In this document: positions 60,001 through 63,000 of the stretch, in pieces
How positions within the stretch are numbered: the first letter of the stretch is position 1
Layout: each line of letters starts with the position of its first letter
NCBI RefSeq assembly: GCF_044324785.1
Contig: NZ_CP172127.1
Source: Escherichia coli
Lineage (GTDB): Bacteria; Pseudomonadota; Gammaproteobacteria; Enterobacterales; Enterobacteriaceae
Reading direction: 5' to 3' (one strand)
Length of the DNA: 64,000 bases
Position numbers: made by a program

Positions 60001-63000
60001 AGCCAGCCCAGACGCCAGTGGATCAGCCCGGCAATCAACAGCAGCGGCAAACCGGCGAGGAAAGCGATAAAAACGGCAGGCCAGGCTTTTTCCCAGTTCA
60101 CCGTGATTTTCATCGACTTAAATTCATCTTTCAGGCTTTGCGGGAACGCTTTGATCCAGTCCCAGTCCATTGGACGGTTACTGTTCACCCAAAAGATTTG
60201 CTGAGTCAGGATGGATTTCAGGTTTTTCGACACACTCATTAACTGCTGCTGGTTAATTTGCAGGTTAATGGCCATCATCAGCTGATTACCCAACTGTTTG
60301 TTGAGTTGATCCAGCAATTCGCGACGCATATCAACCACTTGCAATAACGCATCGTGAACTTCGCTGTTGACTTCGTTGGCGTGACCTTCTTCCAGTTTGT
60401 TGACGAACGCATCGCTCTGGAAGAGTGCATCACGCTGCTGGTTGACTTCAAACTGTTCGAGACGCAAATCCGCGATGCGGTTGGTCATGTTTTCCAGTTC
60501 ATCCGCCGAGGGCAGCGTTTGTTGTTGCTGGTAAAGGATACGAGACAACAGCAGGCTGCCCTTCAGGACGGCAATCTGCTCTTTAATATTGCGTTCCGAT
60601 TGCAGCGCCCGCTCCAGCCAGTTTTTGACTTTAATGTTTTGCTGCATCAACTGATTACCGTTTTCAGTCGCGGTAATCAGACGCTGACTTAACTGCTGGT
60701 TAATTTCCAGTTCCTGCTTCACCAGCGGATTAGCCTGAATACGCGCGGCTTCATCCGGGGAGACGGCTTCCTGCGCCGTTTTTTCGGTTAAAGTCAGACG
60801 CTTGCTGTTTACCGCTTCTTGCAACAGTTGTAACTGGTGCTCCAGACGGGCGCTGTTCGCCGTCACGTAATCACGTTGCTTTTGCAAGGTATCCTGCAAG
60901 ACGGTATTCCCTTCCAGGCTTTTACGCTGCTGGTCAATCTCCGCATTCAGCAACGCCTGCTGAGCCTGCATTAACACTTTCTGGCTGGGACGTAAGGCAG
61001 TCTCGCCGACATCAGTCCCATCCAGACGACTGCGAATTTGTTGCAGCTGCTGCGAAGCGTTATACATCGCATTTTGCACGCGTTCAGGCTGCGTCTGTAA
61101 CGAAACCAGCTGGCTGTTATAAGACGCCAGATCGTTTTGTGCGTTTTGCAAATCGTCCAGCGCCTGGGCAACGCGAGTTTCCAGCTGGCGCAACGAAAGC
61201 GTGCTCAGAATTTTGCGCGTTTCTTCGTCATTATCGACATCGCTAAGTGCAGTTAACGCCGCGGTCGCCTGGCGCATTTTTTCCGGCGCTTCAGCGACTT
61301 TTTGCCGTAGCTGAACTGTCTCTTCTTTTACGCGATCGATTTTATCGAGGGTGGCTAATGTATCTGTCAGATCCTGCTGCACCAGTTTGTCCTGAGCAGA
61401 AAGATCTTTTTGTTTATTTAGTGAGTCAAGTTGTGCCTGCAGGTCCGCTTTTGTCGGCAGATCACCATTCGATGACGCCCGCGCAAACGCCGTGTTCTGG
61501 CATAACAAGACAAAAACAAAAGCAATAAATGCTGAAAAAACAAAATGCCGTGATCGTTTGTAATACTGGAACATAGTCATGATGAATGAAGGTTTCTGAA
61601 CCTGAAGAACGACCTGAAAAAGTCAAACCGCAAGAATATCACGACGCAGTGAACCAGAATAGCAACGACGAAAATGTCCAGGAAAAATCCTGGAGTCAGA
61701 TTCAGGGTTATTCATTAGTGGCAGGGTTACGAAGCGTGGGGCACAGGAGATACATCTCCAGTAAGATGGCGACGTAATCGCGGGCTTCTTTTTTAAGATC
61801 AAAAGATTGCGGGGCAAAGAGCCAGTTTTCCATCAGGCCGGAAATATAGCCGCGCATAATAATTGCTGCCCGACGCGTCATTAAATCCGCAGGCAACATT
61901 TTCGCTTCAATACAATGTTTTAACGTTTGTTCTATACGGTCATAACTTTCCAGACAGAGATTACGTTGTGCCTGTTGCACAACAGCCATTTCTCCGACAA
62001 ATTCGCATTTGTGGAATATAATCTCCATCAATAATCGACGCCGTTCTTCTGTCACCGTGGATTCAAGAACATGAATTAATATCTCTCTTAATACTGAGAG
62101 TGGATCGCCAGGGAATTTTGCCTGATACTCAAGCTCTAGTTCACCAATATTGGATTCTGACAGTTCCCAGATCTCACTGAACAAATCCGACTTGTCTTTA
62201 AAATGCCAGTAGATTGCACCGCGCGTAACGCCAGCTGCTTTTGCAATCTCGCCCAGCGAGGTGGATGATACCCCCCTGCTGTGAGAAAAGACGTAGAGCC
62301 ACATCGAGGATGTGTTGGCGCGTTTCTTGCGCTTCTTGTTTGGTTTTTCGTGCCATATGTTCGTGAATTTACAGGCGTTAGATTTACATACATTTGTGAA
62401 TGTATGTACCATAGCACGACGATAATATAAACGCAGCAATGGGTTTATTAACTTTTGACCATTGACCAATTTGAAATCGGACACTCGAGGTTTACATATG
62501 AACAAAAACAGAGGGTTTACGCCTCTGGCGGTCGTTCTGATGCTCTCAGGCAGCTTAGCCCTAACAGGATGTGACGACAAACAGGCCCAACAAGGTGGCC
62601 AGCAGATGCCCGCCGTTGGCGTAGTAACAGTCAAAACTGAACCTCTGCAGATCACAACCGAGCTTCCGGGTCGCACCAGTGCCTACCGGATCGCAGAAGT
62701 TCGTCCTCAAGTTAGCGGGATTATCCTGAAGCGTAATTTCAAAGAAGGTAGCGACATCGAAGCAGGTGTCTCTCTCTATCAGATTGATCCTGCGACCTAT
62801 CAGGCGGCATACGACAGCGCGAAAGGCGATCTGGCGAAAGCCCAGGCTGCAGCCAATATCGCGCAATTGACGGTGAATCGTTATCAGAAATTGCTCGGTA
62901 CTCAGTACATCAGTAAGCAAGAGTACGATCAGGCTCTGGCTGATGCGCAACAGGCGAATGCTGCGGTAACTGCGGCGAAAGCTGCCGTTGAAACTGCGCG

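Follow-up and report, generated by a model that had tools for sequence, protein, structure and literature searches.

The acrR gene in the window—the whole 64,000-nucleotide stretch of Escherichia coli DNA that was analysed—carries six G in a run where the intact gene has five, and we consider it probable that this is a genuine, very recent and strain-specific null allele produced by replication slippage, which would leave acrAB without its local repressor and modestly derepressed. A frameshift in acrR is a textbook route to efflux derepression and the +G allele already sits in dozens of public assemblies, so that much was known. What is added here is that the call is probably real, that it looks private to this strain within its lineage, and that the same G-run is struck recurrently in both directions across the species.

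Results

The acrR lesion and its surroundings

The gene lies on the minus strand at 61708-62356, is 649 nt long including the stop (648 nt in relatives), and shows 99.2% DNA identity and one 1-nt gap when aligned end to end with acrR of K-12. The gap falls in a homopolymer run at 62271-62276, which reads as six G on the minus (coding) strand (TCA CAG CAG GGG GGT ATC) and as five in K-12, and which extends from the third base of the Gln27 codon through Gly28 to the first base of Val29. An earlier note on this DNA had described an extra G at codon 28-29 of an acrR with these limits, and had proposed alignment to a reference acrR as a check; the alignment bears it out on the gene boundaries, the codon position (Gly28/Val29) and the number of G. 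From the native ATG, the open reading frame (62198-62356, minus strand) encodes 28 native residues followed by 24 out-of-frame residues and a stop, 52 aa altogether, while AcrR codons 29-215 and the stop can still be read without interruption in the frame +1 to that ATG (61708-62271, minus strand; 564 nt, 188 codons). Read from 62355, that frame runs through to ...NPATNE* with no second defect in the gene.

Removing one G in silico gives an AcrR of 215 aa, equal in length to that of PDB 2QOP/3BCG and a match to it from end to end (residues 1-215, E = 1.6e-141). In this repaired protein Pfam recognises a TetR_N helix-turn-helix at residues 16-62 and a TetR_C_2 ligand/dimerisation domain at residues 84-202. 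The native-start product keeps 13 of the 47 TetR_N positions and none of the C-terminal domain, so that a null allele is the straightforward prediction. The earlier note was right that the ATG frame ends with the helix-turn-helix incomplete and that the remainder of AcrR can be read in the +1 frame, and the loss of repressor that it predicted is supported. The uninterrupted full-length frame is absent, being lost after codon 28 with a stop after 52 codons, and the locus is therefore classed as a pseudogene of acrR rather than a functional member of the family. By identity, domains and the divergent acrAB layout it is the AcrR gene; by its reading frame it is a predicted pseudogene.

The surroundings of the gene are those expected of the acr locus. 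On one side lies mscK (58218-61580, minus strand); on the other, acrA (62498-63691, plus strand; 397 aa) is divergent from acrR and intact, and acrB (63714-64000, plus strand) has a normal start and its first 95 codons before it runs off the window. Between acrR and acrA there is a 24-bp palindrome at 62385-62408 (an inverted repeat, assigned to no strand), TACATACATT-caca-AATGTATGTA, which we take to be the AcrR operator. The whole intergenic region, palindrome and promoter region included, is 100% identical to K-12. Since operator, promoter region and acrA are all unchanged, the only lesion would be the loss of the repressor protein.

For the six-G allele, gene callers emit a 198-aa open reading frame (61708-62304, minus strand) that begins at an out-of-frame ATG. 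It crosses the run in the shifted frame and can exist only with six G. Exact look-up of the 52-aa truncated product found no match, and exact look-up of two other six-G gene calls (265 and 234 aa) and of the predicted seven-G products found none on record; the 198-aa frame is thus evidently the one that gene callers prefer. In annotation, acrR in the window should be a frameshifted pseudogene and not a 198-aa "AcrR".

The rest of the window is in good order. Of its K-12 orthologues, 30 of 31 aligned gap-free, acrR being the sole gapped one, and all 27 of the 27 that were translated are full length, with start and stop and no internal stops. An adhesin frame of 6,895 codons (20.7 kb) is unbroken, and, the repetitive adhesin gene aside, the only other indels relative to K-12 and the nearest complete genome are three single-base differences, which appear from their coordinates to be intergenic. 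Shigella-style genome decay was considered as a background to the pseudogene and ruled out, because the window has no IS elements and no further broken genes.

That adhesin is part of an insertion of ~25 kb relative to K-12 (8896-34379, minus strand), located between cueR and ybaT and encoding a type I secretion system: a TolC-family outer-membrane protein (33024-34379), the BapA/SiiE-like giant adhesin itself (12234-32921; 6,895 aa), an LssB-type ABC permease/ATPase (10068-12230) and an HlyD-family adaptor (8896-10071), all on the minus strand. The nearest relatives have an adhesin of 6,925 aa, longer by 30 residues (90 nt, in frame). A 600-aa coiled-coil open reading frame (5978-7780, plus strand) between ybbJ and cueR has no counterpart in K-12; the gene matching it in related loci is variable in length (338 or 594 aa) and has a YadA_anchor domain, as trimeric autotransporter adhesins typically do. 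The K-12 gene ybaQ, which lies between copA and ybaP, is missing at 39711-40140 of the window, and the annotated complete genome nearest to it lacks a counterpart as well.

The extra G is private to the strain in comparison with its nearest relatives

The lineage of the window is not represented among the complete E. coli genomes of RefSeq (5,426): over 24 kb (query 40000-64000) the best of them reaches 98.9%, and strain 042 is among the top matches. Draft and metagenome assemblies do contain the lineage, and were reached by way of an exact match to the PriC protein of the window. Two such relatives, one metagenome scaffold (L022/L025) and L024, are 99.99% identical to the window, from which they differ over ~38 kb by two SNPs, an in-frame 90-nt difference in adhesin repeats and the acrR G. 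Both carry five G and encode a 215-aa AcrR. Because relatives so nearly identical have five G and an intact gene, the extra G is strain-specific and recent; within its lineage, it looks private to the strain of the window and very recent on this comparison. Over the same ~38 kb, one of 134 homopolymer runs of at least 5 nt differs in length, and it is the acrR G-run. Of the 134, acrR contains 3, and it makes up 1.7% of the bases; a single consensus error placed at random would be expected in acrR in ~2% of cases and on this particular G-run in <1%.

The same insertion recurs on diverse backgrounds

The exact 198-aa protein, which requires six G, is present on 41 contigs in 55 index blocks covering NCBI, ENA and Logan assemblies. 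Among the matches listed, nine of the ten six-G loci have all neighbouring genes full length, and the tenth (L016) is an obviously error-ridden assembly. Aligned to the window, all nine clean loci are gap-free. Seven acrR haplotypes carry the extra G, that of the window included, with synonymous differences that come to within 25 nt of the run, and the backgrounds range from 1 SNP off K-12 to ~150 SNPs apart over 5.5 kb, mostly tens to 150. Some six-G contigs were each recovered in identical form from several separate samples (6, 3 and 2). The presence of the insertion on seven haplotypes in clean assemblies implies that it arises repeatedly and independently. Over 5.5 kb, the six-G loci L010 and L017 show just 1 and 4 SNPs relative to K-12 MG1655; these two may descend from laboratory K-12 and have gained the same insertion.

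In complete genomes the allele has left no trace. Of the 5,419 complete E. coli genomes matching a 90-nt probe laid across the six-G run, 5,418 are off by one position, with a one-base gap in every one of the top matches, and none of the 5,419 matches exactly. An exact 40-mer with six G is likewise absent from the GTDB representatives (one genome per species). The exact insertion was not found in the main texts of the papers on acrR mutations that were consulted, nor, in a search by coordinate, in the mutation tables of one large laboratory-evolution study. From its absence among the 5,419 complete genomes, we conclude that the six-G form is rare and was never fixed in a sampled lineage. The +G allele thus appears to be real in nature and of many independent origins, yet rare; its absence from complete genomes is also compatible with a change that is transient or costly, or with a sporadic artefact.

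The run is also struck by deletion

The opposite change has a different distribution. A four-G allele built in silico has a predicted gene call of 227 aa, and 482 contigs with GenBank accessions carry this product. At an identity of at least 99%, a four-G probe matched 119 of 5,418 complete E. coli genomes, many of which are carbapenem-resistant or ST167-type going by their names, and RefSeq labels the acrR of one of these complete genomes a frameshifted pseudogene. The -G allele is mostly on one K-12-like haplotype, with ~93 to 185 genomes identical over 3,088 nt, a range taken from an evenly spaced ranking in which the genomes at about rank 1 and about rank 93 were perfect over 3,088 nt and the next one sampled was K-12, with one gap. 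One further genome (H178) has a span of four-G length (3,088 nt) on a background only 99.0% identical, and may represent an independent deletion.

A frameshift at AcrR codon 29, "V29fs", has been published as common in carbapenem-non-susceptible E. coli; the paper and its supplement give it no direction, whether insertion or deletion. Codon 29 is thus a published site, and the -G form is fixed in a successful multidrug-resistant lineage. Together, the two alleles show that a single 5-nt G-run in acrR is struck recurrently, in both directions, across E. coli. The paper reporting V29fs also notes that V29G has been reported by others. That allele (GTA to GGA, in L002 and L003, at the codon equivalent to window position 62270) is on 278 contigs and has six G in frame (GGGGGGA) with no frameshift; its longer run might be more prone to slippage.

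The literature may hold further cases under another description. One study (PMC10941799) lists N-terminal "deleterious SNPs" in AcrR (A2G, R3T, T5N, K6Q, Q7T, A9S, E11R...R22T), and this list corresponds residue for residue to the 227-aa gene call of the -G allele (P0016), in the upstream portion that is read out of frame. The isolates concerned probably carry the codon-29 frameshift and not many substitutions. Pipelines that assign resistance genotypes can therefore misreport a shifted acrR frame as a string of missense changes.

Discussion

Expected consequences of the allele

The sequence of events that we propose is as follows. Replication slippage in a short G-run would have taken acrR from G5 to G6, after which the native start would yield only a 52-residue peptide and no functional AcrR would be made. 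The divergent acrAB operon, relieved of its local repressor, would then be expressed at a moderately raised basal level and would still be inducible via MarA/SoxS/Rob, with a small, broad drop in susceptibility to fluoroquinolones, tetracyclines, chloramphenicol, dyes and solvents as the expected outcome. Published work on acrR points the same way. Loss of function by frameshift, stop or IS insertion is associated with raised acrAB expression and reduced susceptibility, and acrB expression is higher in acrR mutants. A reconstructed acrR inactivation increased acriflavine resistance 2.6-fold, and introduction of wild-type acrR into an acrR-disrupted clinical isolate lowered acrA/acrB mRNA and reduced fluoroquinolone MICs 2-4 fold. 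Ciprofloxacin-resistant clinical isolates frequently have acrR knocked out, such knockouts correlate with organic-solvent tolerance, and in ciprofloxacin evolution experiments acrR frameshifts, deletions and IS insertions appear late. The literature therefore agrees with the statement in the earlier note that acrR loss is a recognised route to acrAB derepression and lower susceptibility, and it sets the size of the effect as modest, ~2-4 fold, and not high-level resistance by itself.

Compared with the acrR loss-of-function alleles of fluoroquinolone- or multidrug-resistant and laboratory-evolved E. coli, the window has the same gene affected with the same predicted consequence, and native residues 1-28 only are left of a protein whose helix-turn-helix occupies residues 16-62. 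The lesion differs in being a single-base insertion, not an IS element or a deletion. Larger disruptions were seen among the loci that we collected: in L007 (~3738-5397) an insertion of ~1.35 kb splits acrR, and in the complete genomes H145 and H157 transposases of the IS5 and IS3 families are annotated inside the gene. The closest parallel is the V29fs/-G allele of carbapenem-resistant E. coli named as ST167, which shares the homopolymer, the codon and the truncation before the helix-turn-helix is complete. However, the change there is a deletion (G5 to G4) and here an insertion, and the -G allele is largely on one K-12-like haplotype, whereas the +G allele is sporadic, is spread over many haplotypes and has no representative among the complete genomes.

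Alternative readings

That the extra G is real rather than a sequencing error, that selection favoured it, and that expression and MICs shift as described are all things that we infer, and each has a competitor. The most obvious is that the strain truly has five G and an intact acrR, the homopolymer having been miscounted in the consensus. Homopolymers are the classic site of indel error, so the caution on this point in the earlier note was fair, and noisy public assemblies do show such errors in this very region (six G in L016, other indels in L023). Moreover, the nearest relatives have five G and six G is found in none of the 5,419 complete genomes. Nevertheless, an error-prone consensus would be hard to reconcile with a stretch of 38 kb in which no other run among the 134 differs from the nearest relative, with a window in which no other K-12 orthologue is gapped and a 20.7-kb frame is intact, and with the small chance, given above, that a stray error should land on acrR, let alone on precisely the run where real indels recur. 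The same allele is also found in clean, independently sequenced short-read assemblies. We therefore regard a miscount as unlikely, though it is the competitor to which we give most weight. A slippage that is real but neutral, or acquired in laboratory passage, fixed by drift or a bottleneck and with little phenotype, strikes us as rather unlikely too. It would accord with the fact that AcrR only modulates acrAB and that the reported effects of its loss are small, with the failure of the six-G form to become fixed in any sampled lineage of complete genomes, and with the two six-G loci within 1-5 SNPs of K-12 over 5.5 kb that may be laboratory derivatives. Against it, only three differences besides the extra G separate the window from its nearest relative in 38 kb, acrR is struck repeatedly under drug selection both in the laboratory and in the clinic, and the insertion has originated repeatedly, on seven haplotypes. 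We infer that drug or solvent exposure favoured the allele, because it recurs and because it is one of so few differences from the nearest relative.

The last competitor accepts the extra G and makes the allele leaky, with full-length AcrR produced by +1 slippage of tRNA-Gly on GGG-G or with the 198-aa frame translated into a working repressor. We hold this to be very improbable. Re-pairing from GGG to GGG one base along would be perfect and would restore the native ...QQG-VSS..., but the slippery codon is followed by GGT, neither a stop nor rare, and no stimulatory element is suitably spaced, AGGGGG overlapping the slip site rather than preceding it. Close and distant relatives alike encode AcrR in one frame with five G, so the two-frame layout is not conserved and nothing points to a programmed event. 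For the 198-aa frame, what speaks in its favour is that it retains most of TetR_N and all of TetR_C_2. However, the sequence upstream of its ATG (...CAACACATCCTCG-ATG) has no obvious Shine-Dalgarno, and the frame exchanges helix 1 of the DNA-binding domain for 11 unrelated residues; with no recognisable ribosome-binding site and helix 1 replaced, rescue of function is unlikely. RefSeq, for its part, treats the equivalent -G allele as a pseudogene. A programmed frameshift of the prfB kind was also examined as a candidate, suggested by the mRNA motif AGGGGGGUAUC, which resembles the prfB site. The prfB site calls for a slippery codon followed by a stop or slow codon, with a Shine-Dalgarno-like element ~3 nt upstream; AGGGGGGUAUC lacks the slippery CUU-U and the UGA and overlaps the slip position, and the candidate was rejected on the missing stop context and the unconserved two-frame layout.

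Implications

The preferred reading, a recent slippage null allele at a run that is struck repeatedly, invites comparison with phase-variable contingency loci such as those of Neisseria or Haemophilus, where homopolymer tracts undergo slipped-strand mispairing, and with which the acrR run shares recurrent two-way changes in homopolymer length that switch a gene off. The likeness fails on tract length, the acrR tract being only 5-6 nt; classical contingency tracts are typically 7-8 nt or more. It is conceivable, and in our estimation doubtful, that the G5 tract at codons 27-29 is a low-frequency two-way mutational switch used repeatedly in nature, in which gain or loss of a G turns acrR off under drug or solvent stress and the opposite slippage restores it. 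If so, efflux derepression would be unusually accessible and reversible in E. coli, the window would capture a freshly switched case, and the ST167-type clones would be lineages in which the off state has become fixed. Whether or not the run acts as a switch, the loss of AcrR predicted here would amount to a small and broad loss of susceptibility to AcrAB substrates, of the sort that often accompanies or precedes higher-level resistance.
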